Shown here: piece after piece, positions 1 to 12,870 of the stretch
Layout: every line of letters starts with the position of its first letter
Position numbering within the stretch: the stretch's first letter is position 1
NCBI GenBank assembly: GCA_001774555.1
Contig: MFAI01000018.1
Coordinates: 873 to 60,953 of the forward strand
From: Candidatus Collierbacteria bacterium RIFCSPLOWO2_01_FULL_50_23
GTDB lineage: Bacteria; Patescibacteriota; Microgenomatia; UBA1400; MFAQ01
DNA: 60,081 nt
Direction: 5' to 3'
The notes under the pieces: generated by a model
Databases searched by the model: none
The model's input: the letters and a program-made list of their open reading frames with translations, nothing else
Told to the model about the DNA's origin: nothing
Translations under genes and position numbers: made by a program

Positions 1-1609
1 CTGTCTCAATTCGCGATACTTTTTCACCCGTTTTGCCAAGTTCTCCAATCGCGATAATGCTCTTTCTTACATCTTCACCATCCTTAAGAACGGTGAGAGA
101 AACCGCCTGGGGCATCTTATTATCTGCAACATAGTCAGTATCCTCAAAAGGTGTATCTGCTAAAAATCTACCCCGCAAGGCACGTTCGTGATAAAGGCCT
201 TGTTTCAGCTTGTCCACTTGGTCACCTGTCAGAGGATCGTCGATTTTTGCTTCGACTCCCTTTACCGTTAAAGGAGATAAGGCAAGCCCCTTCAACTCAC
301 CAATATATCCCTTGATCTTTGCCAACCTCGGTTTCGATTCACCCTCAAGCGTAATGTAGATGCGTTTTACAGTTACCCCACCACTCAAAGTCTCTTCCCT
401 TTCGACAGCTCTCAAGTTTCCCTTAGTCTCATCATACTCAACCTCAGTTCCATCGTCTTTCTTGTAGATAATGGTACGGAAACCTTCGGTAAATACCCTA
501 GAGCAACCAACATAAATCCTTTTTGCCAAATTTGCAGCAGCATTTCTGGAGCCATCAAAAGAAAAATATCTATTCAAGTAATGGGTCCATGTAAATCTCG
601 CCTCCTCTTTGTAAGCTGCAAAAATTTGGTGAGCAATTGTATAAGCATCGTTTCCAAAACGTGTTCTAAGGTCATCTTCGACTAAGGTTCTGTTCACTTC
701 CGGGTAACCTGTATCGTAATAGTTTTTCTTCAAGCTTTGATTATTTTCTGGTCTTCTCGTATTTGGATTTATCTTAAACAACCGATATTTCTCAAATTCC
801 TTTTGCCAAGGCTGATCAAACTTTGGATCTTTTTCTCCCATTAATAATAAAATCGAGAACACCCTATCAATCTTTTGTGTAGTGAGTGCCTCCGCCCCCT
901 CTTCACCCAAACTATCGATTCCTCTAGCGACACCTCGAGCATCTACCCCTCTTAGCCATTTGTAGTGCGATCTTTCCAAGACGGGAACATTATTTGCCTT
1001 CATGTCATTTACGAAAGTCTCTGCCGCACTACTTCGATCCATGCCCTTCAGAGCACCTTCTTTTATTTCCGCCGCCCTCAACAAACACCGTAGCTCTATC
1101 TCAGCTTCTACGGCCGTTTTGACTTCATCCAATTTCGACCCCAGTTCCCGCGGAAAAAGATCTCTTGCAGCAAAACCCTTTTTGGGATCAAACCCCAACG
1201 AGGCTCCAACCTTATCGTAAACAGCCTTCAGGGTAAGATCGCCGGGACTGCTGGCAATACGAACTATCTCCCTAGCCCTCTTTCGGAAAAATAAACGGGC
1301 CTCTTTTTCACTTATTGGAACAGTCTCGGGTCCAGATGCCATTTCCGGCTCAGTAGTTATTTTTGCAAGGATAGAGTCTCTGGCCGCTTTTATCCTTCTA
1401 TATTCTTCGATTTCACCAGTGTCCATCGCTACCCTCAAGGCTGCTTCCGTTGCCTCCAATGCAAGCTTGTAAGCCTCCGGATCGTTCAGCTGTCCTGCCA
1501 TCTGAACCCTTGTTTCCCACTTTACACCGCCTCCGCCCGTCAAATCAGTTGGTGGCGCATATTCTATCCGCGGCTGAAAACCTCTTTGTTCTGGTCTCAA
1601 TTCAGGCAT
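1..1609 (-). CDS. large hypothetical protein, N-terminal ~536 codons (gene continues past the left edge)
   Basis: Absent from the ORF track because it has no stop in the window. Hand translation of the minus strand from ATG at 1609-1607 (MPELRPEQRGFQPRIEYAPPTDLTGGGGVKWETRVQMAGQLNDPEAYKLALEA...) stayed open through the ~410 nt checked codon by codon (1609 down to about 1081) and looked open on a quicker read to position 2. No family recognised. Confidence 0.55.
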   Translation of the reverse strand, partial: MPELRPEQRGFQPRIEYAPPTDLTGGGGVKWETRVQMAGQLNDPEAYKLALEATEAALRVAMDTGEIEEYRRIKAARDSILAKITTEPEMASGPETVPISEKEARLFFRKRAREIVRIASSPGDLTLKAVYDKVGASLGFDPKKGFAARDLFPRELGSKLDEVKTAVEAEIELRCLLRAAEIKEGALKGMDRSSAAETFVNDMKANNVPVLERSHYKWLRGVDARGVARGIDSLGEEGAEALTTQKIDRVFSILLLMGEKDPKFDQPWQKEFEKYRLFKINPNTRRPENNQSLKKNYYDTGYPEVNRTLVEDDLRTRFGNDAYTIAHQIFAAYKEEARFTWTHYLNRYFSFDGSRNAAANLAKRIYVGCSRVFTEGFRTIIYKKDDGTEVEYDETKGNLRAVEREETLSGGVTVKRIYITLEGESKPRLAKIKGYIGELKGLALSPLTVKGVEAKIDDPLTGDQVDKLKQGLYHERALRGRFLADTPFEDTDYVADNKMPQAVSLTVLKDGEDVRKSIIAIGELGKTGEKVSRIET

Positions 1610-1676
1610 GTTTTAGGCAGGAAAATAATAACCCATATTCTACGGCTAATTTTAGCACACCCCGACACCCGTCCGA

Positions 1677-2506: not shown

Positions 2507-3310
2507 ATGGCAATCGAACAGCACCCCATCCCCCAAGACGTCGCCGGCTACAAATTCCGTCTCATCGGCGAAATGACCGTCAAACAATTTATCTGGCTCG
2601 CCGGAGGTATCATTTTGGGCCTCATTACCTTCAGTCTCCCCCTACCTTTCTTCTTCAAATACCCGCTTACCGGTATCTTCGTCGCTCTGGGAGCCGGTAT
2701 CGCCTTCCTCCCCGTCGAAGGCCGCCCCATGGACAAATGGCTCATTGCCTTCATCAAATCTGTTTACTCACCCACCGAATATACCTGGCAAAAAAGCGAG
2801 GGGGTGCAAGGCCAACCTAGTGTCACCACCGCCAAAATTACGCCTCACGTCGTCGTTCCGGCGCCCGCAACTAGACCGGCGGCACCTGCTCCGGTAGTCA
2901 CCGTCGCTACTCCAACACCAATCGCTCCAACTCCGGTAGCTCCAACTCCACCGGTAGTCACCCCTGCAATTCCAACAGCTCCAAAACCCGTTGCCCCGAC
3001 TCCAGCCGCCCCCGCTCCCTCCGGTAATCTTCCTATTCCCTTTACCCCCACGACCCCCAATACGCTGGTCGGGATGACCCTCACCGCCGAGAGCAAGATT
3101 CTCGACGGTTGCCTTGTCGAGATCAAAAGCAACGGTGTCAGCATTCGCGCCACCAAAAGTAATCAGTTGGGCCAATTCCTCTTTGCCAAACCACTCGAAA
3201 ACGGGAACTTTCAGATCTTCACCGAGAAGACTGGCTATACTTTCGATACCTACTCGTTAACTCTTACCGGTCAGATCGTCAAACCATTACGACTCCAAGC
3301 CAAACCATGA
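2507..3310 (+). CDS. PrgI-family (VirB3-like) membrane protein with Pro-rich linker and C-terminal beta-sandwich (carboxypeptidase-regulatory-like) domain
   Basis: N-terminus HPIPQDVAGYKFRLIGEMTVKQFIWLAGGIILGLI plus two hydrophobic helices matches the PrgI pattern. Then comes a (A/T)P-rich stretch, then GMTLTAESKILDGCLVEIKSNGVSIRATKSNQLGQFLF...GNFQIFTEKTGY. Confidence 0.65.
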   Translation: MAIEQHPIPQDVAGYKFRLIGEMTVKQFIWLAGGIILGLITFSLPLPFFFKYPLTGIFVALGAGIAFLPVEGRPMDKWLIAFIKSVYSPTEYTWQKSEGVQGQPSVTTAKITPHVVVPAPATRPAAPAPVVTVATPTPIAPTPVAPTPPVVTPAIPTAPKPVAPTPAAPAPSGNLPIPFTPTTPNTLVGMTLTAESKILDGCLVEIKSNGVSIRATKSNQLGQFLFAKPLENGNFQIFTEKTGYTFDTYSLTLTGQIVKPLRLQAKP

Positions 3311-3684
3311 ACAACAAAAAACAACAAAAAATCACTGTAAAGGGTGTAGAGATCGTAACTTTTAAGAAAAATGAGTCCGATTTTATTTCTCTGACGGATA
3401 TCGCTAAATACAAGGGTGCCGCGGAAACAGACGATGTAATTAAAAACTGGATGAGAAATCGAAGCACTATCGAATTCCTAGGCCTGTGGGAAAAATTGAA
3501 CAATCCCAAATTTAAACCCGTCGAATTCGACGGGTTAAACGTTGCCTTACTCGGCATGACCGCCAAAGACTGGCGAGATAAAAACCCGAGCCCACAATCA
3601 ATGCGTTTAGTCCAACTCAACCAAGTTGCCATAATCCAAATGCAATCTTTACTAGACAGTAGTAGCGTGAAAAAATTGAAATGA
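3307..3684 (+). CDS. KilA-N domain protein, internally deleted or truncated remnant
   Basis: ISLTDIAKYK...VIKNWMRNRSTIEFLGLWEKLNNPKFKPVEFDG is the KilA-N N-terminal signature. It joins directly to LNVALLGMTAKDWRDKNP, which in full-length (~270 aa) relatives lies ~110 aa further on. ATGA overlaps at both ends. Confidence 0.65.
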   Translation: MNNKKQQKITVKGVEIVTFKKNESDFISLTDIAKYKGAAETDDVIKNWMRNRSTIEFLGLWEKLNNPKFKPVEFDGLNVALLGMTAKDWRDKNPSPQSMRLVQLNQVAIIQMQSLLDSSSVKKLK

Positions 3685-4379
3685 GTAACGTCAAGGCCAG
3701 CACCCAAGAACAGCTCGATATCTATACCATCAAGGACCATCTGGTCTATCTCAAGGACGGCTCGGTCGCCCTGGTGCTCCAAACCACCGCCATCAACTTT
3801 GGTCTCCTGTCTGACGAAGAACAGGATGCCACCATTTACTCCTACGCCGCCCTGATCAACTCCCTTTCCTTCCCTATTCAGATCCTTATCCGTTCCCAGA
3901 GAAAAGACGTTTCGGAGTATATCGAGCTCCTCGACGACCGGATTCAAAACGTCGCCTCCCAAAAGATCAAGGAAACCATCATCAGATACCGTCAGTTCAT
4001 CAAGAGTTTGGTAAAAGAAAACCGCGTTCTCGAAAAGCGTTTCTATGTCGTTGTTCCCTTTTCGACGATTGACCTTGGCATTACCACCGGCGCCTTCAAC
4101 CCCTTCGCCGTCGCGCCCCAGAAGCCTCCTTTCGATCTTAGCTACGTCGGGGAAAAAGCCATGCTCGCCCTCTATCCAAAGCGTGACCATCTCATCCGTC
4201 AATTCGCCCGCATCGGCCTGAAGGCCCGTCAACTGACCACCGCCGAATTGATCAGCCTCTTCTATAGCACCTACAACCCTGAGGCCAGCACTTACGCTTT
4301 TCAGCAGGCTCAGGAAAAAGAAGGTCAGGGAAAAACGATCGTCCAACCAAAACCGGAAATTAATTTACCAAAAAAATAA
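3681..4379 (+). CDS. hypothetical protein of the T4SS-like cluster (possible stand-alone VirB4 N-terminal-like domain)
   Basis: 232 aa, translationally coupled on both sides. The pattern NFGLLSDEEQDATIYSYAALINSLSFPIQILIRSQRKDVSEY resembles the N-domain of TraC/VirB4-type ATPases. No Walker motifs. Confidence 0.4.
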   Translation: MSNVKASTQEQLDIYTIKDHLVYLKDGSVALVLQTTAINFGLLSDEEQDATIYSYAALINSLSFPIQILIRSQRKDVSEYIELLDDRIQNVASQKIKETIIRYRQFIKSLVKENRVLEKRFYVVVPFSTIDLGITTGAFNPFAVAPQKPPFDLSYVGEKAMLALYPKRDHLIRQFARIGLKARQLTTAELISLFYSTYNPEASTYAFQQAQEKEGQGKTIVQPKPEINLPKK

Positions 4380-4380
4380 T

Positions 4381-7300
4381 ATGGCATTACCTTTTTTCAA
4401 CAAAAAATCAGCTGCGGCTCCTACCCCCCCCGCAGGCCACAATCCGCTTCCCACTTCTCCCGCCGGACAGATAGCTTCACCTATCCCCACCGGCCCTCTG
4501 ACCAACCACCCAACACCCTCCGGCAACTCAACTCCTGCTGAAATTACCAACATCCAAGATACTATCGCTCCTCCGGCAATTGAAGTCGACTTTTCAAGTC
4601 TGAAGATCGGCGACACTTATCTTCGCACTCTTTTTATCGTCGGTTATCCCCGCTATGTTTCCGCTAATTGGCTTTCTCCCCTCATCAACTTCAATCACTC
4701 CCTTGATATTGCTATGTACATTTATCCTACCGAAAGCAAGGGCACTCTCGACCAACTTCGTCGCAAAATTGCTGAAATGGAAGCTGAGATTAGCTCCGAT
4801 ATCCAACGGGGCCGTCTCCCTCAAGCGGCTACCCAGGCGGCTCTCGAAGACGCCAAATCACTACAAGAACAGCTCGTCAAAGGCATCGAGCGTTTCTTCC
4901 AATTCTCGCTTTACGTCACTATCGCCGCCGAGTCCATCAAGGAGTTAAATACCATCACCCAGCAAGTTCAAAGCACCCTCGGTTCGCTCCTCATCGTCGC
5001 CAAGGTCGCTTCCCTTTCCATGGAAGACGCTTTCAAGACCACGCTCCCTTACTGCAAGGACAAGCTCCTGATTACAAGAAATATGGATACCACTGCTCTC
5101 TCAACGACCTTTCCCTTTACTTCATCCGAGCTTTCCGATAACAAAGGCATTCTCTATGGCATCAACGCCCACAACGAATCTCTGGTTATTTTTGACCGTT
5201 TTTCACTAGAGAATGCGAATATGTTGGTTCTCGCAACTAGCGGAGCCGGGAAGTCTCTGGCCTATAGTGATGAAGTGTTTATCAAGAATGCGGCAAACGA
5301 GGTCAAGAGAGCCAAAATCGGTCCCCTAGTCGAAAAAATAATCCAACGAAAAGGTTCAATCAAACTGGAAAAAGATATTGAAGGTAATCTCTGTCCGGGA
5401 ATAAAGGTTTATTCGTTTGACCCAAAAACACTCAAGGGAGGTTGGTCTGCCGTTACGGTCGCCGCCCGCAAGAAATCACCCAAGAATCTATATCACTTCA
5501 CCACCAAGTCCGGCCGAGAAATTACCACCACTGCTGATCACAATCTTCTTACCCTCAAAGACACCAAAATCAATGTCTCAAAAGGGTCAGCGGCCAAAGT
5601 CGGCGATTATCTCCCCCTTCCCCGCCAGATTCTTGAATCAACCTCCTCTACTTCCAAACATTCGCTAGAATACTATTCTTTGCTTGGCTACTATACAGCA
5701 GAGGGTTGTCATACAACTAATAGTGTTCGTATTTCAGCCATGAATCCACAAATTATCAATCATGTTAAAAACCTCTGCGGTAAGCTGGATTATAATTTCT
5801 CTCTGTTATCAAACCATGGTCAAATTAAGGGGGTTTCGATCAGATCAAAATCTCTGATCAGGAAACTAAAGCTTGAAAAATGTGCCGGTAAAGCGGGAAC
5901 GAAGAGAGTACCCTCAATTCTATTTGCCGAAAAAAACGAGCTGAAAGCCGCCTACTTACGCTCATATTTTAGTGGTGATGGTTGCGTCGAACAACACGAA
6001 GTTACTTGCGTTACCAAATCAAAGGGTCTAGCCTCCGATCTCTCCTACCTCCTCTATAACTTTGGCATCATTGTTCGAATCCACCCCAAATTCAAAAAAG
6101 CCACCAACACTAAACACATTGGCGACATCTACTGCCAACTCACAATATCCGGCCAAGACAACCTCAAGAAATTTGCCAAACAAATTGGTTTCAACCTTGA
6201 TTACAAAAACCAGAAGCTCCAAAAACTACTCGGAAAAATTGGCAATCCCAATGCTGATATCATCCCAAACCTCCAAAAGTCCTTCAAAAAAATCTATTCG
6301 ACCCTCTATAACTCAAACAACAAGGCTCCCCAACGGCTGATTAACATCAAGGACGGTTTCTATAATCCCACTCCAAAGGAGCTCCTCAAGGTAATTGATG
6401 AGGTCAAACCGAGACTAAAAGAAATTGAGAACGAAGCTGAAAATATCTTTACTTTGCTCAAACTTCCTCAATGGCAAGACCTGGCTCTGGAAGGATCAGT
6501 CAAAAAATCACTAAACAAAAAGCTTTGGCAAAACCTTGGTCAAACCTGGCGCATTATGAAAAAACGCCAGGTCGCCCCCCAAATAAATACGGTTCTAAAA
6601 GTCTATGAAACTCTCCATGGGCCAGTATTTACAAAAGAACAAATATATGGAGCCATTAACCACTCTTTCAAGACCCTTGGTCTATCGCTTGGCGATTTTG
6701 ACAATACACTCTGGAACGCCGTCACCCAAACCAATGCCAACACTATTTATGATCGTGTCTACAAGGCAAGCCAGTATCTTTTAAGACAATATCTAAAATT
6801 GCAGGATAAAATTAAAAAAATAGAGGACATTCTTTCAGACATCTCCACACTTGCTAATTCAGACCTCTTCTGGGATCCAATCGAGAAAATCGAAAAAATC
6901 AAATCCCGTCATCCCCACGTATATGATCTGACCGTCAATAATCAGGTCTTTCTGACTGGTCATGGTGGAATGTTCGTTCACAACTCCTATTTTGTGAAGT
7001 TGGAGATCATGCGCGCATTGATGTTTGATACCGAAGCGATCGTCCTCGACCCCGAGAACGAGTACGAAATGATTGCAAAGGCTATTGGCGGTAATTACAT
7101 CAATTTTTCATCTTCTTCCCAGAATAAAGTTAATCCTTTCCAGATCGCCAACGTCAGCGACAGCACCGAGGATGAGATGGGCTACAAGTATCTCTTCCTC
7201 CAATCGCTCCTGAAGATTATGTTGGGTCAGATGTCTCCAACCGAGGATGCGACCCTAAATCGCGCCTTGGTCCTCACCTACCGCCAGAAAGGTATCACCG

Positions 7301-7995
7301 AAGATCCCTCAACCCATACCCTCGAGGCTCCCCGTATGGAAGATCTCTATCGCTCCCTCATTGGCATGGAAGATGAAAGCGCCAAAAATCTTTCCGCCCG
7401 CCTCGAAAAATATGTCATGGGTGCCGTCAAAGGCATCTTCGACCAACAAAGCAACATCTCCCTCGATAGCAAGGTCACCGTCTTCACCCTCCGCGAGCTC
7501 GCCGATGAGATCCGCCCTATTGTCATGTTCATCATTCTTGATTACGTCTGGACCAAGGTCAGAAAAGATCTCAAACGCCGGCTCCTCATTGTCGACGAGG
7601 CTTGGTATCTCATGCGCTACGAAGACTCAGCCAAGATCCTCCAGGGTTTTGTCAAGCGCGCCCGCAAGTATTATCTCGGCGTCACCGTCATTTCCCAAAA
7701 CGCCGACGATTTTCTGACATCTCCATATGGCAAAGCTATCGTCACCAATAGCGCCCTGCAGATGCTCTTCAAACAGTCTCCTGCTGCTGTTGATCAGGTG
7801 GCCGACGTCTTCTATCTTTCCCAGGGCGAAAAACACATGCTTCTCTCTGCCGGCGTCGGCGAGGGACTTTTCTTTGCCGGTCAAAACCACGTCGCTGTTC
7901 GAGTCATTTCTTCCCCCGATGAGCACGCACTCGCGACCAGCAAACCCACCGAAGTCATCGAACGTCAGAGACAGGCTTCCCCTGATAAACTATAG
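4381..7995 (+). CDS. virB4: VirB4/TrsE-like type IV secretion ATPase, interrupted by an intein (about 627 aa after splicing)
   Basis: Walker A is LATSGAGK|S...|SYFVKLE, split by the insert. Walker B is RRLLIVDEAWYL. The C-terminal FVKRARKYYLGVTVISQN is typical of VirB4/TraC ATPases. Confidence 0.85.
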   Translation: MALPFFNKKSAAAPTPPAGHNPLPTSPAGQIASPIPTGPLTNHPTPSGNSTPAEITNIQDTIAPPAIEVDFSSLKIGDTYLRTLFIVGYPRYVSANWLSPLINFNHSLDIAMYIYPTESKGTLDQLRRKIAEMEAEISSDIQRGRLPQAATQAALEDAKSLQEQLVKGIERFFQFSLYVTIAAESIKELNTITQQVQSTLGSLLIVAKVASLSMEDAFKTTLPYCKDKLLITRNMDTTALSTTFPFTSSELSDNKGILYGINAHNESLVIFDRFSLENANMLVLATSGAGKSLAYSDEVFIKNAANEVKRAKIGPLVEKIIQRKGSIKLEKDIEGNLCPGIKVYSFDPKTLKGGWSAVTVAARKKSPKNLYHFTTKSGREITTTADHNLLTLKDTKINVSKGSAAKVGDYLPLPRQILESTSSTSKHSLEYYSLLGYYTAEGCHTTNSVRISAMNPQIINHVKNLCGKLDYNFSLLSNHGQIKGVSIRSKSLIRKLKLEKCAGKAGTKRVPSILFAEKNELKAAYLRSYFSGDGCVEQHEVTCVTKSKGLASDLSYLLYNFGIIVRIHPKFKKATNTKHIGDIYCQLTISGQDNLKKFAKQIGFNLDYKNQKLQKLLGKIGNPNADIIPNLQKSFKKIYSTLYNSNNKAPQRLINIKDGFYNPTPKELLKVIDEVKPRLKEIENEAENIFTLLKLPQWQDLALEGSVKKSLNKKLWQNLGQTWRIMKKRQVAPQINTVLKVYETLHGPVFTKEQIYGAINHSFKTLGLSLGDFDNTLWNAVTQTNANTIYDRVYKASQYLLRQYLKLQDKIKKIEDILSDISTLANSDLFWDPIEKIEKIKSRHPHVYDLTVNNQVFLTGHGGMFVHNSYFVKLEIMRALMFDTEAIVLDPENEYEMIAKAIGGNYINFSSSSQNKVNPFQIANVSDSTEDEMGYKYLFLQSLLKIMLGQMSPTEDATLNRALVLTYRQKGITEDPSTHTLEAPRMEDLYRSLIGMEDESAKNLSARLEKYVMGAVKGIFDQQSNISLDSKVTVFTLRELADEIRPIVMFIILDYVWTKVRKDLKRRLLIVDEAWYLMRYEDSAKILQGFVKRARKYYLGVTVISQNADDFLTSPYGKAIVTNSALQMLFKQSPAAVDQVADVFYLSQGEKHMLLSAGVGEGLFFAGQNHVAVRVISSPDEHALATSKPTEVIERQRQASPDKL
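5254..6984 (+). mobile_element. large intein (577 aa) with LAGLIDADG homing-endonuclease domain, inserted in the Walker A P-loop
   Basis: Block A SLAYSDEVFI (Ser1), block B TTTADHNLLTL, LAGLIDADG motifs LLGYYTAEGC and LRSYFSGDGC, block F HVYDLTVNNQVFLTG, block G GMFVHN followed by +1 Ser. Removing it restores GAGKSYFVKLE. Confidence 0.85.
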
Positions 7996-7997
7996 CT

Positions 7998-10907
7998 ATG
8001 GCGCTTTCCTACGAAGATGTTGATCTAGTTCTTGCCACGGGCACAATTCTTGCCAACTTTCAGTCAGGCCACAAAGATCTCAGCCAAGCAGACCAAGAAA
8101 CTGCCCTCGCCTGCCAAAAATTAATTCTGGCCCTCATCGACGACCCCCGACTTATTAGTTTCAAGGATCTTTTCGAATTTACCAAAGGCGATCTTACCGC
8201 CTTTCTCTCCGAAATACCACCCTCCATCATGGGTGATGTAGCCGGAATCATTGAAAAAATCATTGCCAATGAACGCCTCCAAAAACAAATTAAAGAACTC
8301 CATGACTTTCTTATTGATTATCTGCTCAGAAGATACAGTGCCGATGAAAAGTTTTCCTGGAAGGATGTTATCCAAAAAGAGCGGGTACCTTTCGCAGAAT
8401 ATGCCCATTATGTCAATCTGGCAAGCGATTATGCCGCCTACCTCGCCCTCCGGGAAGAAGCCCGCCTACCTACCGAAGAGAGGTTGGAAGAAGAAAAAAC
8501 CAAGGAAGTCGAGGCCGCGGAACCAGAAGCGGAAATAGAGGAAACCAAAGAAATCCCAACTGCCGCTACTGCTGCCGTTCCAACCGCAGTTATCGCCGCC
8601 AACGTCAAACTGCTTCTCGCGGACAAAGAAGCCCAAGATGAAATCAACCGCCGGATTGATGAAAAACTCGCCAAAGAAAATATAGATACCAGAAATCTGA
8701 TCAAACGTCTGGTGGCCCTCCAGATCGTCCGCCGTACTGTCCTCGAAATTGCCAAAAACGCCAGTCAGAAAGACAACGCCGCTCTCGCCGAAATTAACCA
8801 GGAGGTAAATTCAAAACCGAAAGACGCACCCGAACCTCTAATTGCTGCCATCAGTCGGGATCTCATCAACTTCGTCCTTCCCCAGGTCGAAAAAGAGCAA
8901 AAAATTCAGATCACCGTAGAACAAAGGGGGGAAACCGTCAAAAATCTGGCTGATATTATTGTTGCTTCCGCCGCCATCGGCGAAATCGACGTCAAGGATG
9001 ATGTTCCCCTCCGTCTGGATATCAAAGATCCCGTCATCCGAGACCAAATAGTCCAGATTGCTCTCGCCGAAGCCGTTCCAGAGTTTAGTTCCCCCGTTGC
9101 TGATCTCCACCGTCAAGTCGAAGAAAAAGTCGTTCTGATCACCCCCACCCCCCGCTACGATCTCCCCGCTATGGTCCAAATCACACCGCAGATTGCCATT
9201 GCCAATCTTGAGACCATCATTCTGCCTCCTGTCACTCTCCCTCCGGTCACTTTTAACCTTCCCGCTCCCATCGAAGACAAGATCGAACAGGCTCAAATCA
9301 TTTCCGAAAAGTTTGTCACCGCCGTTATTCTTAATTCCAAAACCGAACAAGTGATGGATTCGCTTACCGGCAGCATTACTCAAACCCAGGGAAACCAACT
9401 CACCCAGATTCTTATTGGCGCCAATTTGCTCACCCGCGTTGCCTCGACACAAAAGGCCGAAACCGTAGCCACTGTCTACGAAAAACTAGCTCCCGTCAAC
9501 CCACTCGTCGCCCCTATCGCCATTCGCCTCCTCTCCATGGGCTACGATCAGAAAAAAGTCGATCAGGAAATTACCGTTCATCCTACCTCAAAACTGGCTC
9601 AGTTTTTCAGGGAACGTCCAAAAATCAAAGAACAGCTCGACCGAAGCCTTCATCATCTCGAAAATCCGAAAAATGAACTTGGACTGGAGATCTCTCCGCG
9701 ACTCCGTCAACAAGCTGCCCAGGCCGGAACTCCTCCGCCTCATCTCCCCGCCCCTACTCCTCCGGGAGCACTTTCAAACATTGGTAGACAAATTCAATCT
9801 GCCTCAAATCAGATATCCGGCTTTCTCCCGGGCCGCGCCGGCCGGATCTTCAACTTCATTACCCATCCATTTCAATCCATCCAGAGCTACATTGGCAGAC
9901 AGTTCGGAAACCGTATTGCCGCTCAATTTACCAATTTGATCGCTCAAAAATTTGTCAGCCGAATTGCTAATGAAACTCTCAAAAAAGGAGCCGAGTTTCT
10001 CCTCAAAGAAGGATTACAAAAAGGAGTTCAAAAATTAGGAGCCCTTGCCCTAGAAAAAATTGGTGCCACTGCCGTCGTTGCCGGTCTTTCTGCCGCTCTT
10101 GGCGTCAGCACTGCTGGCATTTCTCTCATCATTCAAGCCGCTTTGATGGTTGGCGCAGAAGTCGCTAAAAAAGTTTTTGGGCTCGTCAATGACATGGTTA
10201 CCAGTATCTATGGCAAACCTCTTGAGGCCCGTGACTTGCTGGCCGTGCCCCTACTTGCAGTCGCGGGAATTGGGGGGGTCCTGGGTAGCCTTGCCACCGT
10301 TACTGCCGTCGCCGCTTCTTCCGCCGCTATTATCATCATGGGTTCCACATTTGTTGGTTTTATTCTCTACATCACCGTGATCGGGATTGCTCCCGTCATC
10401 GCCGGTATTGCCCACCTCGAATCCGCCCAAGGCGCTCCCTATTCTGTCGTTTCCGGCGGAGTTGTCCCCGAAGGCTGTCCTTCCGGCTGGCCCCTGGCTT
10501 CAGGTTACGTTACCCAAGGTCCTCGCACTACCTCGACCCACCGAAATGTTGAGGCTATTGATGTTGGTGTTGGCCTCGGCACTCCCATCATCGCCACTCA
10601 TAATGGCCTGGGCCGCTACGATCCCAGTCTCGGCCCTTATGGAAACTTCGTCGACGTCTCCGGCACCTGTAATGGAATCGCTTTCACTACCCGCTACGCC
10701 CACATGGTTACCGGCGCCTTCTCTGGTGAAAAATTAGTCCAGAAAGGCGAGATCATCGGCTACGTCAATAGCACTGGCAACTCTACCGGCAACCATTTAC
10801 ACTATGAAATCAGAGGGGGAAATCTGGGAGATATCAACCAATTCCTCCCCAAACGCGTCGCTCCGGGCTGTATTGACTATGGCAACTGTCAAGTTAATCT
10901 ACCGTAA
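7998..10907 (+). CDS. large T4SS-associated membrane protein with C-terminal M23 (LytM-type) peptidase domain
   Basis: Charged or coiled N-terminal part, a polytopic hydrophobic block (GATAVVAGLSAALGVSTAGISLIIQAALMVG...IIIMGSTFVGFILYITVIGIAPVIAGIA), then AIDVGVGLGTPIIATHNG...YAHM...GNSTGNHLHYEIR. Confidence 0.7.
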   Translation: MALSYEDVDLVLATGTILANFQSGHKDLSQADQETALACQKLILALIDDPRLISFKDLFEFTKGDLTAFLSEIPPSIMGDVAGIIEKIIANERLQKQIKELHDFLIDYLLRRYSADEKFSWKDVIQKERVPFAEYAHYVNLASDYAAYLALREEARLPTEERLEEEKTKEVEAAEPEAEIEETKEIPTAATAAVPTAVIAANVKLLLADKEAQDEINRRIDEKLAKENIDTRNLIKRLVALQIVRRTVLEIAKNASQKDNAALAEINQEVNSKPKDAPEPLIAAISRDLINFVLPQVEKEQKIQITVEQRGETVKNLADIIVASAAIGEIDVKDDVPLRLDIKDPVIRDQIVQIALAEAVPEFSSPVADLHRQVEEKVVLITPTPRYDLPAMVQITPQIAIANLETIILPPVTLPPVTFNLPAPIEDKIEQAQIISEKFVTAVILNSKTEQVMDSLTGSITQTQGNQLTQILIGANLLTRVASTQKAETVATVYEKLAPVNPLVAPIAIRLLSMGYDQKKVDQEITVHPTSKLAQFFRERPKIKEQLDRSLHHLENPKNELGLEISPRLRQQAAQAGTPPPHLPAPTPPGALSNIGRQIQSASNQISGFLPGRAGRIFNFITHPFQSIQSYIGRQFGNRIAAQFTNLIAQKFVSRIANETLKKGAEFLLKEGLQKGVQKLGALALEKIGATAVVAGLSAALGVSTAGISLIIQAALMVGAEVAKKVFGLVNDMVTSIYGKPLEARDLLAVPLLAVAGIGGVLGSLATVTAVAASSAAIIIMGSTFVGFILYITVIGIAPVIAGIAHLESAQGAPYSVVSGGVVPEGCPSGWPLASGYVTQGPRTTSTHRNVEAIDVGVGLGTPIIATHNGLGRYDPSLGPYGNFVDVSGTCNGIAFTTRYAHMVTGAFSGEKLVQKGEIIGYVNSTGNSTGNHLHYEIRGGNLGDINQFLPKRVAPGCIDYGNCQVNLP

Positions 10908-10910
10908 ACT

Positions 10911-11939
10911 ATGAAAATTAAAACTCTCCTTTCGAAATACTGGCTCTTTATAATTCTTTTTCTACTCGCGCTAATTGGTGCCTATTTCTATTTCGCGGCT
11001 CCATCCGTAAAAGTTCCGGAAATAACCATCCCCAGGCCCACACCTGTGCCCACTAGCCCGGTTACTGCACTTCCCCCTATTAATACTGGTTTCAAGCCTG
11101 CTTCTCGTATCATTTGGCGTCTCGACACGCTTCCAATCCCGGAAACATTGTCTGTCATTCATGTCGCCGGGCCACTTGCAGATCCAAATACCTATTCTCC
11201 TCTCGCCAAGATGCTTGGAATCACTACTCAACCCGTAAAGCTCCCCAACCAACCGCTCTACACCTGGGTTTCCACAGATAACGCCGGTAGCTTCTACGTC
11301 AATCTCAGAGACAAAATAGCCTCCTACTCTCTTAATCAGGATCTCAAACCCATACCGACTACCGGTCAAAAAATTAATTCCGATATTCTAATTACCAATC
11401 TGATTAACCTGCTTACTCCCGTTCTCAATTTGTCGGAGAACTTTTCTCTTGTTCCGGGAGAAGTAAAATATCTCATTGTTGCGGATGAACGCTACGTTCC
11501 ATCAGTTCAAAGCCAAGCTACCTTTGCCGAAGTTAACCTCAACTACTCCTTCCGCAACTTCGCCCTCACCTATCGCGGTGTCCCCGCCGTCACTGCCCGC
11601 TACAGTCTCTATGGTCCGCTTGTCAGTTTGCGCCTTTTACTTCCCTTTTCTCAAATCAGTCTCAGCCCGGACTACGATCTCAAATCCTTAAGTCAGATCA
11701 AAGAAACACCCGCCGAAAATTTCGAAATAATTGCCGAGAGCGGCAGTCGTGCCTTTGAACTCTCGGACAAAGAAGAGGTGATGAATTCCATCACCATCAC
11801 TGGAGGCTACGTCGGCTATCTCACCAATCCTACCTCCTCCGCCGTTACTCCTTACGTTTTTCTCACCGGCACTAGCCAGTCAAAGACCTACGGCACTCTA
11901 AACATCACCCTCGCCACCCCCGCCCTCAAGCTCCAGTAG
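10911..11939 (+). CDS. hypothetical N-terminally anchored protein (last gene of the T4SS-like cluster)
   Basis: N-terminal TM helix YWLFIILFLLALIGAYFYF. Starts 4 nt after the preceding stop. No family recognised. Confidence 0.55.
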   Translation: MKIKTLLSKYWLFIILFLLALIGAYFYFAAPSVKVPEITIPRPTPVPTSPVTALPPINTGFKPASRIIWRLDTLPIPETLSVIHVAGPLADPNTYSPLAKMLGITTQPVKLPNQPLYTWVSTDNAGSFYVNLRDKIASYSLNQDLKPIPTTGQKINSDILITNLINLLTPVLNLSENFSLVPGEVKYLIVADERYVPSVQSQATFAEVNLNYSFRNFALTYRGVPAVTARYSLYGPLVSLRLLLPFSQISLSPDYDLKSLSQIKETPAENFEIIAESGSRAFELSDKEEVMNSITITGGYVGYLTNPTSSAVTPYVFLTGTSQSKTYGTLNITLATPALKLQ

Positions 11940-12870
11940 CCAATAGTGCCTCATGTTCTTGTGAAGCGACCTCTTCATCCATCTTGTTTGTCACTTTTAC
12001 CGCCACAAATACTTCAAACCCTGATAATGCTCCAAATCTGTTTGATCCATTAATAAACTCTGTTAGCTCAACATCATCAACTCCGGGTCTTCCGTTTCGA
12101 CTTCTATCCAAAGGGTCGACGATCTGGAAGACGATTTGCCCCGCCGCATCAACGTTGTATCCGATAATTGATTTTGCATGCTGGTTTCGAGAGAACACAA
12201 CCTTCTGGCCCTCAAAAATGGCGTTAAGCAACTCAACCACCGTTGGACGAAGAATCGCCGCCTCATATCTATACTTACCGAACTGCGGTTCAGTGTTCAG
12301 AATTTGGCATATTGTTACTGGTGTATGTGCACCAAAATACCCATCTTCGCTAATCGTCACTGGATTTCCTTCTCTCAAGAGAAGCTTTTTGATAATCCCG
12401 TCCTCCGTTGTGGCAGGGTTCTTTATTTTTAGACCGCAAGCGGTTAAACAATTAACGGTTGAGGCTACAATACAGGTCGAGAGCCTCCTTCCAAAAGTGA
12501 CTGCTCGTTCTCCAACATAGTTTTGGGCATGCGAGTATTTGGTTTCCCCCTCCAACATTTGAAAGGCCGCTCTTTCGTATATCTTCTCCACCTGTTTTTT
12601 CCAGCCTTCCCTTCTTATTCTGGCGGCTTGATCCACTCCGTCCGCACCCGACTCCGACCTGAACATCTCAACGGCGAGTACCGTCATTTCAGCCTCAAAC
12701 TCATCCTGAGTATCTGCCAATTCATTCCGCACCTTCTTAGCTAGCCTATGTGCAGATTCTCTTGCTCTCTCCTCCATCTCACTATGATCCTCCGGTTTCC
12801 CGATAATCACCTTATCCAGCGTATCGTCCGGTTTCAGCTCATTCTTATCCTTATCTTCAAGTCTGGTCAT
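11926..12870 (-). CDS. hypothetical protein, possible papain-fold (C39-like) cysteine peptidase
   Basis: Starts 5 nt after the dnaN stop. Candidate catalytic Cys in RRLSTCIVASTVNCLTACG and His/Asp in QHAKSIIGYNVDAAGQIVFQIVDP, in the usual order and spacing. Confidence 0.35.
   Translation of the reverse strand: MTRLEDKDKNELKPDDTLDKVIIGKPEDHSEMEERARESAHRLAKKVRNELADTQDEFEAEMTVLAVEMFRSESGADGVDQAARIRREGWKKQVEKIYERAAFQMLEGETKYSHAQNYVGERAVTFGRRLSTCIVASTVNCLTACGLKIKNPATTEDGIIKKLLLREGNPVTISEDGYFGAHTPVTICQILNTEPQFGKYRYEAAILRPTVVELLNAIFEGQKVVFSRNQHAKSIIGYNVDAAGQIVFQIVDPLDRSRNGRPGVDDVELTEFINGSNRFGALSGFEVFVAVKVTNKMDEEVASQEHEALLATGA

Follow-up and report, generated by a model that had tools for sequence, protein, structure and literature searches.

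Which kind of element separates the lysine and the serine of the Walker A motif in a VirB4-like ATPase of an uncultured, ultra-small bacterium, and is it still able to move? The question is raised by a 60,081-nucleotide stretch of contig MFAI01000018.1 (positions 873 to 60,953, forward strand) of Candidatus Collierbacteria bacterium RIFCSPLOWO2_01_FULL_50_23, which is referred to below as the window and is numbered from its first letter. The ATPase gene contains an in-frame insert of 577 amino acids (aa) that was initially annotated as an intein from the sequence alone. The analysis described here makes it highly probable that the insert, located at GAGK|S in the VirB4-like ATPase of a chromosomal type IV secretion system (T4SS), is an intein of class 1 with an embedded LAGLIDADG homing endonuclease; the host is a Patescibacterium of Microgenomates/Collierbacteria type.

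Intein in the Walker A motif of a VirB4-like ATPase

The precursor gene and its parts are arranged as follows.

4381-7995, forward strand: precursor gene, VirB4-like ATPase split by the intein, as given in the list of open reading frames (ORFs); 1204 aa, 134.8 kDa
4381-5253, forward strand: N-extein, 291 aa; its last residues, SGAGK (nucleotides 5239-5253), form the first part of Walker A
5254-6984, forward strand: intein, 577 aa, 65.2 kDa (Pfam PF14890 and PF14528; TIGR01445)
5254-5658, forward strand: N-terminal Hint (splicing) segment with blocks A and B, beta-rich in the model
5254-5292, forward strand: block A with Ser1, SLAYSDEVFIKNA
5512-5553, forward strand: block B, GREITTTADHNLLT, with T93-A-D-H96 (T-x-x-H)
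5659-6258, forward strand: LAGLIDADG homing-endonuclease domain (PF14528, E = 3e-21)
5680-5706, forward strand: LAGLIDADG motif 1, LLGYYTAEG, with catalytic Glu150
5956-5982, forward strand: LAGLIDADG motif 2, LRSYFSGDG, with catalytic Asp242
6259-6858, forward strand: family-specific all-alpha accessory domain of ~200 aa, preceded by the endonuclease and followed by the C-terminal Hint segment
6859-6984, forward strand: C-terminal Hint segment with blocks F and G (...FVHN)
6916-6954, forward strand: block F, HVYDLTVNNQVFL, with Asp558
6958-6984, forward strand: block G, GHGGMFVHN, with His576 and Asn577, followed by Ser+1
6985-7995, forward strand: C-extein, 336 aa plus stop, opening with the Ser+1 that completes Walker A GAGK|S
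7582-7605, forward strand: Walker B, LLIVDEAW (aa 1068-1075)

Translation of positions 5254-6984 yields exactly 577 residues, which begin with SLAYSDEVFI and end with GMFVHN. The insert is preceded by NANMLVLATSGAGK (ending in LATSGAGK) and followed by SYFVKLEIMRAL, and the insertion point lies in frame between Lys and Ser of GAGK|S, the Walker A motif. The initial annotation was exact in these coordinates, and each of the motifs it named (splicing blocks A, B, F, and G and two LAGLIDADG motifs) was located. The additional helical region that it described before block F is also real, but comprises about 200 residues, not about 250.

The insert was recognized by the Pfam profiles Intein_splicing (PF14890, 68.2 bits against a cut-off of 35.8, E = 9e-19) and LAGLIDADG_3 (PF14528, 76 bits against 22.5, E = 3e-21), both above the gathering score and far beyond chance, and by the NCBIfam profile intein_Nterm (TIGR01445, 41.9 bits against 24.5). 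Its sequence matches in PDB are the intein PI-PkoII (E = 4e-17), TFIIB mini-inteins, CDC21-1, KlbA, and a V-ATPase intein. The AlphaFold2 model of the intein, built from an alignment of 59 family members, has a mean predicted local distance difference test (pLDDT) value of 92.9 and a predicted template-modelling score (pTM) of 0.86. In the Foldseek comparison of this model with PDB the top matches are TliVMA (7qss, E = 2e-21), PI-PfuI (1dq3, 4e-19), and PI-PkoII (2cw7, 2e-18), then PI-SceI, with mini-inteins and the free LAGLIDADG enzymes I-DmoI and I-Tsp061I at lower ranks. By its sequence and modelled structure the insert is thus a canonical class-1 intein carrying a predicted double-motif LAGLIDADG homing endonuclease, whose two motifs each end in a catalytic acidic residue and whose profile and Foldseek matches agree with the alpha-beta-beta-alpha-beta-beta-alpha pseudo-dimer fold of such enzymes. 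No further intein was detected in the window by phmmer or by hmmsearch with the intein family profile.

Intein-free alleles of the same gene

In silico excision of the insert restores the GAGKS Walker A motif, as the initial annotation had proposed, and leaves a product of 627 aa (69.6 kDa). A search with this spliced extein identified intein-free orthologues of 566-681 aa with up to 92% identity, with which the N-extein aligns over its full length. The predicted spliced junction, LATSGAGKSYFVKLE, is present in intein-free orthologues. Over the insertion site, orthologues with 84-92% identity have the sequence LATSGAGKSYFVKLEI, in exact agreement with the junction expected after ligation. The suggested comparison with intein-free VirB4 alleles has thus returned the expected sequence.

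These alleles bear directly on the possibility that the 577 residues are a lineage-specific structural insertion in VirB4, or an artefact of assembly or frameshifting. The unusual helical region may be viewed in its favour, and nothing else was found that does so. On the other hand, every intein hidden Markov model (HMM) scores above its threshold, both the Hint and the LAGLIDADG folds are recovered, the boundaries are exact with respect to the intein-free alleles, and the same architecture is found again in over 120 independent clusters, which come from many different samples. A conserved structural insertion without homology to the Hint fold is excluded by the Hint-fold matches, and we rejected both variants of this explanation, whose probability is negligible, on the basis of the profile scores, the recovered folds, and the alleles in which the site is precisely empty.

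Proposed splicing and homing pathway

The motifs listed above allow the established class-1 splicing pathway to be projected onto this protein. The 135-kDa precursor would be translated with a broken P-loop. Ser1 would undergo an N-O acyl shift assisted by Thr93 and His96 of block B, the resulting ester would be attacked by Ser+1 in a transesterification, and cyclization of Asn577, helped by His576 and by Asp558 of block F, would free the 65-kDa intein. An O-N shift would then complete the ligation to give the 70-kDa ATPase with an intact GAGKS P-loop. With its P-loop interrupted, the precursor is not expected to bind ATP productively before splicing, and the function of the T4SS would therefore depend on splicing. 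The freed intein is probably a site-specific endonuclease that cuts intein-free virB4 genes at the P-loop codons; repair of the cut allele would copy the intein into it (homing). The element is very likely functional.

Helical accessory domain

The region that separates the endonuclease from the C-terminal Hint segment (intein residues ~336-535, ~200 aa) is entirely helical in the model, with about 12 helices, and reached a pLDDT of 96.1 when modelled alone. It is basic (isoelectric point (pI) 9.6) and contains the family-wide motifs NTNxDxIPxL, LWxxLGxSW, and LAxSDLFWDPI. The domain has no match in Pfam and only noise in NCBIfam (E = 0.04), and Foldseek found no match for it in PDB (best E = 0.3, TM-score 0.24) or BFVD (best E = 0.37). 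A phmmer search of 1.84 billion representative proteins returned 12 clusters, and all those whose architecture could be checked belong to this intein family. Because of its position, its pI, and its conservation, the domain most plausibly adds DNA contacts, that is, extra DNA recognition, although this assignment is a guess.

Conservation and mobility of the intein family

Relatives of the precursor were collected as clusters at 90% identity from ENA, NCBI, JGI, and Logan assemblies, and at least 120 of these clusters have the VirB4-intein architecture. In the search with the whole protein it is shared by all 120 best-matching clusters, with total lengths of 1016-1429 aa and inteins of 492-668 aa. 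The names in this set include Collier-, Woese-, Gottesman-, Davies-, Shapiro-, and Chisholmbacteria, and some of the clusters are labelled 'intein/homing endonuclease' or 'LAGLIDADG family homing endonuclease'. Contigs encoding VirB4 proteins of the Patescibacteria type (L007, L010, L014, L021, and others) are often titled 'uncultured Pseudomonadales', 'uncultured Gammaproteobacteria', or 'Candidatus Methanoperedens', and are probably mislabelled or mis-binned metagenome-assembled genomes.

The residues T93, H96, D558, H576, and N577 are invariant in all 120 relatives, and the catalytic acidic residues of the endonuclease are retained nearly throughout (E150 in 118/120, D242 in 119/120). The first residue of the intein is Ser in 110 relatives, Cys in six (P0041, P0058, P0063, P0071, P0082, and P0088), and Thr in four (P0060, P0065, P0067, and P0108). 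Thr is unusual at this position of an intein.

The distribution of the intein is patchy. Among the 80 closest species-representative genomes of GTDB r232, the intein is present in two (L009, a Collierbacteria genome, and L010) and the site is empty in the other 78. In several pairs, an allele with the intein and one without it hardly differ in their exteins (identities: P0002/P0131, 99.5%; P0003/P0129, 99.1%; P0007/P0146, 99.2%), so that gain or loss must have been recent. At the same time, the pairwise identities of inteins and exteins are correlated (Spearman coefficient 0.60), which indicates largely vertical inheritance within lineages, punctuated by recurrent gain and loss. A tblastn search of 72,556 plasmids found no close relative of the intein; the only matches were three distant ones (23-24% identity) in Streptomyces and Halorussus, none of them in a VirB4.

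The composition of the insert is distinct from that of its host gene, as initially noted: its GC content is 41.8%, compared with 50.1% and 51.2% in the two exteins and 49% in the window; the GC content at third codon positions (GC3) is 0.445 compared with 0.53 and 0.63; Lys accounts for 12.1% of residues compared with 5.6% in the exteins, and Asn for 6.9% compared with 4.3%. The bias had been considered consistent with horizontal arrival. Composition and the presence/absence polymorphism indeed fit a mobile element, but the correlation of intein and extein identities does not fit a single recent import.

Relative to L003, the closest relative with available DNA, all four segments of the window intein are under purifying selection, in favour of the interpretation as a functional homing intein: the ratios of nonsynonymous to synonymous substitution rates (dN/dS) are 0.045 for the N-terminal Hint segment, 0.03 for the endonuclease, 0.09 for the helical domain, and 0.04 for the C-terminal Hint segment. 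Some observations weigh against this interpretation. The dN/dS ratios are approximate, since dS between the two sequences is saturated (1.0-3.5). Not every copy in the family is intact: P0005 lacks residues 146-211 of the endonuclease and P0011 lacks residues 420-504 of the helical domain. Effects of composition or codon usage, instead of foreign origin, could account for the low GC3 in the intein, and the DNA-contact role of the helical domain has no support from homology in Pfam, NCBIfam, or Foldseek. Occasional decay of the kind represented by P0005 and P0011 is, however, what the homing cycle predicts. A higher dS in the intein (2.0) than in the extein (1.05), a hint of partly separate histories, was set aside because dS is saturated.

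The same deletions, together with the correlated divergences of inteins and exteins, could be expected if the intein spliced with a dead endonuclease and, no longer mobile, were being passed on vertically as a relic before its eventual loss. This explanation is unlikely, as the acidic residues of both LAGLIDADG motifs are kept in the window copy as well as in 118-119 of the 120 relatives, the endonuclease domain has the lowest dN/dS (~0.03) of the segments tested, and alleles with 99% identical exteins differ in having the intein. Taken together, the presence/absence pattern, the conservation, and the occasional deletions mark the element, at the sequence level, as a selfish intein whose homing cycle still continues.

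Another scenario assigns a role in the host to the element: the intein, still able to splice, would be kept as a post-translational switch that leaves the P-loop broken until a certain condition permits splicing, with conditional splicing gating the Patescibacterial T4SS and the helical domain acting as the sensor. It draws on the position of the intein in the catalytic P-loop of the ATPase, homologues of which Saccharimonadia, as the only system tested, cannot do without in epibiotic growth (PMC12102498), on the conservation and purifying selection of a ~200-aa helical domain without a known function, and on the argument of Novikova et al. that selective retention of P-loop inteins is possible (PMC4760082). 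The intein is dispensable, however, for 78 of the 80 related species and for near-identical strains; both junction nucleophiles are Ser, so that the known Cys-based redox switches do not apply; and the conserved catalytic residues of the endonuclease are those expected of a selfish mobile element. We consider such a switch very improbable and retain the interpretation of the insert as a homing intein.

Other insertion sites in the family

In 14 of the 120 relatives the insertion point is FGK|SGGGKS, which precedes the usual site by five codons (P0062, P0089, P0092, P0095, P0100, P0102, P0106, P0109-P0111, P0114, P0115, P0119, and P0120). The loop in these hosts is a duplicated GKS-Gx-GKS, and the intein interrupts its first GKS, not the Lys and Ser of Walker A. 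Their closest counterparts (50-58% identity) are inserted at the usual site in hosts with the same duplicated GKSGxGKS loop, and comparison of these sequences suggests that the intein has shifted to an adjacent look-alike site. In P0250 (1196 aa), an intein of the same type, including the helical domain (26% identity), interrupts the GSGK|S motif in another kind of ATPase, which is HerA/DUF87/AAA_10-like and has only ~73 aa ahead of the P-loop. Since this host is different, the intein family has moved between the P-loops of related but distinct ATPases.

The helical domain could be imagined as a new intein module, either for recognition of the DNA target, setting the specificity of the endonuclease for the P-loop, or, more speculatively, as a sensor through which splicing, and thereby T4SS activation, becomes conditional. 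In that case the FGK|SGGGKS site may record retargeting of the intein to the adjacent look-alike site by the helical module. We regard this extension of the homing-intein interpretation as improbable.

Host ATPase and the T4SS locus

The host protein was assigned with the intein left in. The whole precursor scores 339.7 bits with the NCBIfam profile NF045971 (conju_CD1110, the VirB4-like conjugal transfer ATPase family CD1110), above the equivalog cut-off of 325, and 101 bits with TIGR00929 (VirB4_CagE), far below the cut-off of 643; the latter result places the host protein in the monoderm branch and not with the classical diderm VirB4. After in silico removal of the insert, matches to the Pfam domains P-loop_TraG (E = 9e-28), AAA_10, DUF87, and CagE_TrbE_VirB were obtained, and those to P-loop_TraG and AAA_10 fall on the C-extein. 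Among relatives that carry a name, Candidatus Collierbacteria and other Microgenomates are the nearest. The following genes surround the precursor gene.

2507-3310, forward strand: PrgI (VirB3-like), upstream T4SS gene of the same operon (Pfam PrgI)
3307-3684, forward strand: inserted ORF with a KilA-N domain, 125 aa, between the PrgI and TraC-like genes (Pfam KilA-N)
3681-4379, forward strand: TraC-like gene, upstream in the same operon (the syntenic orthologue in L001 has PF26593, TraC-like)
7998-10907, forward strand: downstream gene for a 969-aa protein with a C-terminal M23 peptidase domain (Pfam PF01551, E = 9e-15)

From its domain content, the 969-aa M23 protein is a candidate cell-wall hydrolase of the T4SS. 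Farther downstream are dnaN and dnaA, and the gene order of the intein-free locus L001 is identical to that of the window: PrgI, TraC-like, VirB4, M23, dnaN, dnaA. The survey of T4SS neighbours covered the immediate neighbours, within which a relaxase and a coupling protein were sought. T4SS of Patescibacteria have been described as widespread, chromosomal, and adjoining the replication origin genes dnaN-dnaA (PMC12102498), and the locus is a chromosomal, origin-proximal T4SS of this monoderm (MPF-FATA-like) type.

Several additional ORFs were observed around the operon. The KilA-N domain of the 3307-3684 ORF is partial (Pfam E = 5e-8), its GC content is low (~40-42%), the ORF overlaps both flanking T4SS genes by 4 nucleotides, and L001 and L002, two syntenic loci without the intein, also lack this ORF. 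It thus resembles a small mobile insertion, the second one in the T4SS operon. A 314-aa ORF on the reverse strand (11926-12870), between a 342-aa T4SS-adjacent gene and dnaN, has no Pfam match, and the syntenic locus L001 has no gene at this position. Just upstream of the operon, two small overlapping reverse-strand ORFs (1677-2367; 142 and 89 aa) were noted by eye only as candidates for a PIN/VapC toxin and its antitoxin; L001 has other genes here. The beginning of the window (1-1650), which appears free of ORFs in the ORF list, was considered as possibly non-coding, which was rejected, as a reverse-strand ORF of at least 537 aa (1-1612) runs off the edge and is absent from the list for that reason.

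Significance

The element is ordinary in kind: it occupies a classic P-loop site in an already listed host family, and its relatives are abundant in public data. Modest additional interest is attached to the helical domain, to the second insertion site, and to the omission of inteins from the literature on Patescibacterial T4SS. A 2025 survey of these systems nowhere mentions an intein, LAGLIDADG, or homing (PMC12102498), and our literature search on inteins in the candidate phyla radiation (CPR)/Patescibacteria found no paper on Patescibacterial VirB4 inteins and, in the publications searched, no description of the ~200-aa helical domain or of the insertion site five codons upstream.

For genome annotation, intein-bearing alleles roughly double the length of the VirB4 gene, and clusters labelled only 'LAGLIDADG family homing endonuclease' hide their VirB4 identity. 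The family also constitutes a large natural data set on the homing cycle in uncultured bacteria, with over 120 clusters, pairs of near-identical alleles of which one has the intein and the other lacks it, a second insertion site adjacent to the first, and Ser, Cys, or Thr at position 1. An intein with Ser1 and Ser+1 and an uncharacterized helical domain could be of interest to intein or meganuclease engineers. The VirB4 intein leaves the understanding of inteins and of T4SS unchanged, and its importance is modest.

Comparison with known inteins

P-loops are established hot spots of intein insertion, as the initial annotation correctly stated, with DnaB-b, MCM-a, and RFC-S a as known examples (Novikova et al. 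2016, PMC4760082). As in the window, the inteins at site a of the archaeal RFC small subunit, site b of DnaB, and site a of MCM are LAGLIDADG-containing class-1 inteins inserted in Walker A with the nucleophile at +1. The NCBIfam model of the RFC small subunit (PRK04132.1-2) aligns with residues 282-869 of the precursor (E = 4e-31), from 10 residues before the intein to one residue after it, and these limits suggest an analogous insertion point in the RFC small subunit. The window intein differs from the RFC, DnaB, and MCM inteins in its host, which belongs to an unrelated ATPase family (the VirB4/HerA-FtsK superfamily), and in its ~200-aa helical domain, which alone gives no RFC or other match.

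Among inteins of solved structure, TliVMA (7qss), PI-PfuI (1dq3), PI-PkoII (2cw7), and PI-SceI (1vde) share the two-domain Hint and LAGLIDADG fold with the window intein (Foldseek E-values of 2e-21 to 1e-9), but are only 13-21% identical to it. The query-normalized TM-score is ~0.5, since nothing in the solved inteins corresponds to the 200-aa helical domain. Sequence similarity is also detectable to the KlbA intein (Mja KlbA, 2jmz; E = 4e-6), which, unlike the window intein, is a mini-intein without an endonuclease.

The initial annotation took inteins to be undescribed in VirB4 ATPases of T4SS. This was incorrect: Novikova et al. 2016 (PMC4760082, Table 3) already list VirB4 (COG3451) as an intein host, with five such inteins from Firmicutes and Proteobacteria, and the architecture of the window gene is shared by at least 120 clusters. 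The Firmicutes and Proteobacteria inteins thus have the same host family as the window intein, whereas the archaeal VirB11/KlbA inteins, of which 21 are listed for VirB11 (PMC4760082, Table 3), are hosted by the partner secretion ATPase VirB11. Compared with these published VirB4 and VirB11 inteins, that of the window resides in another taxon, the Patescibacteria, and in a T4SS that is chromosomal and lies beside the replication origin genes.

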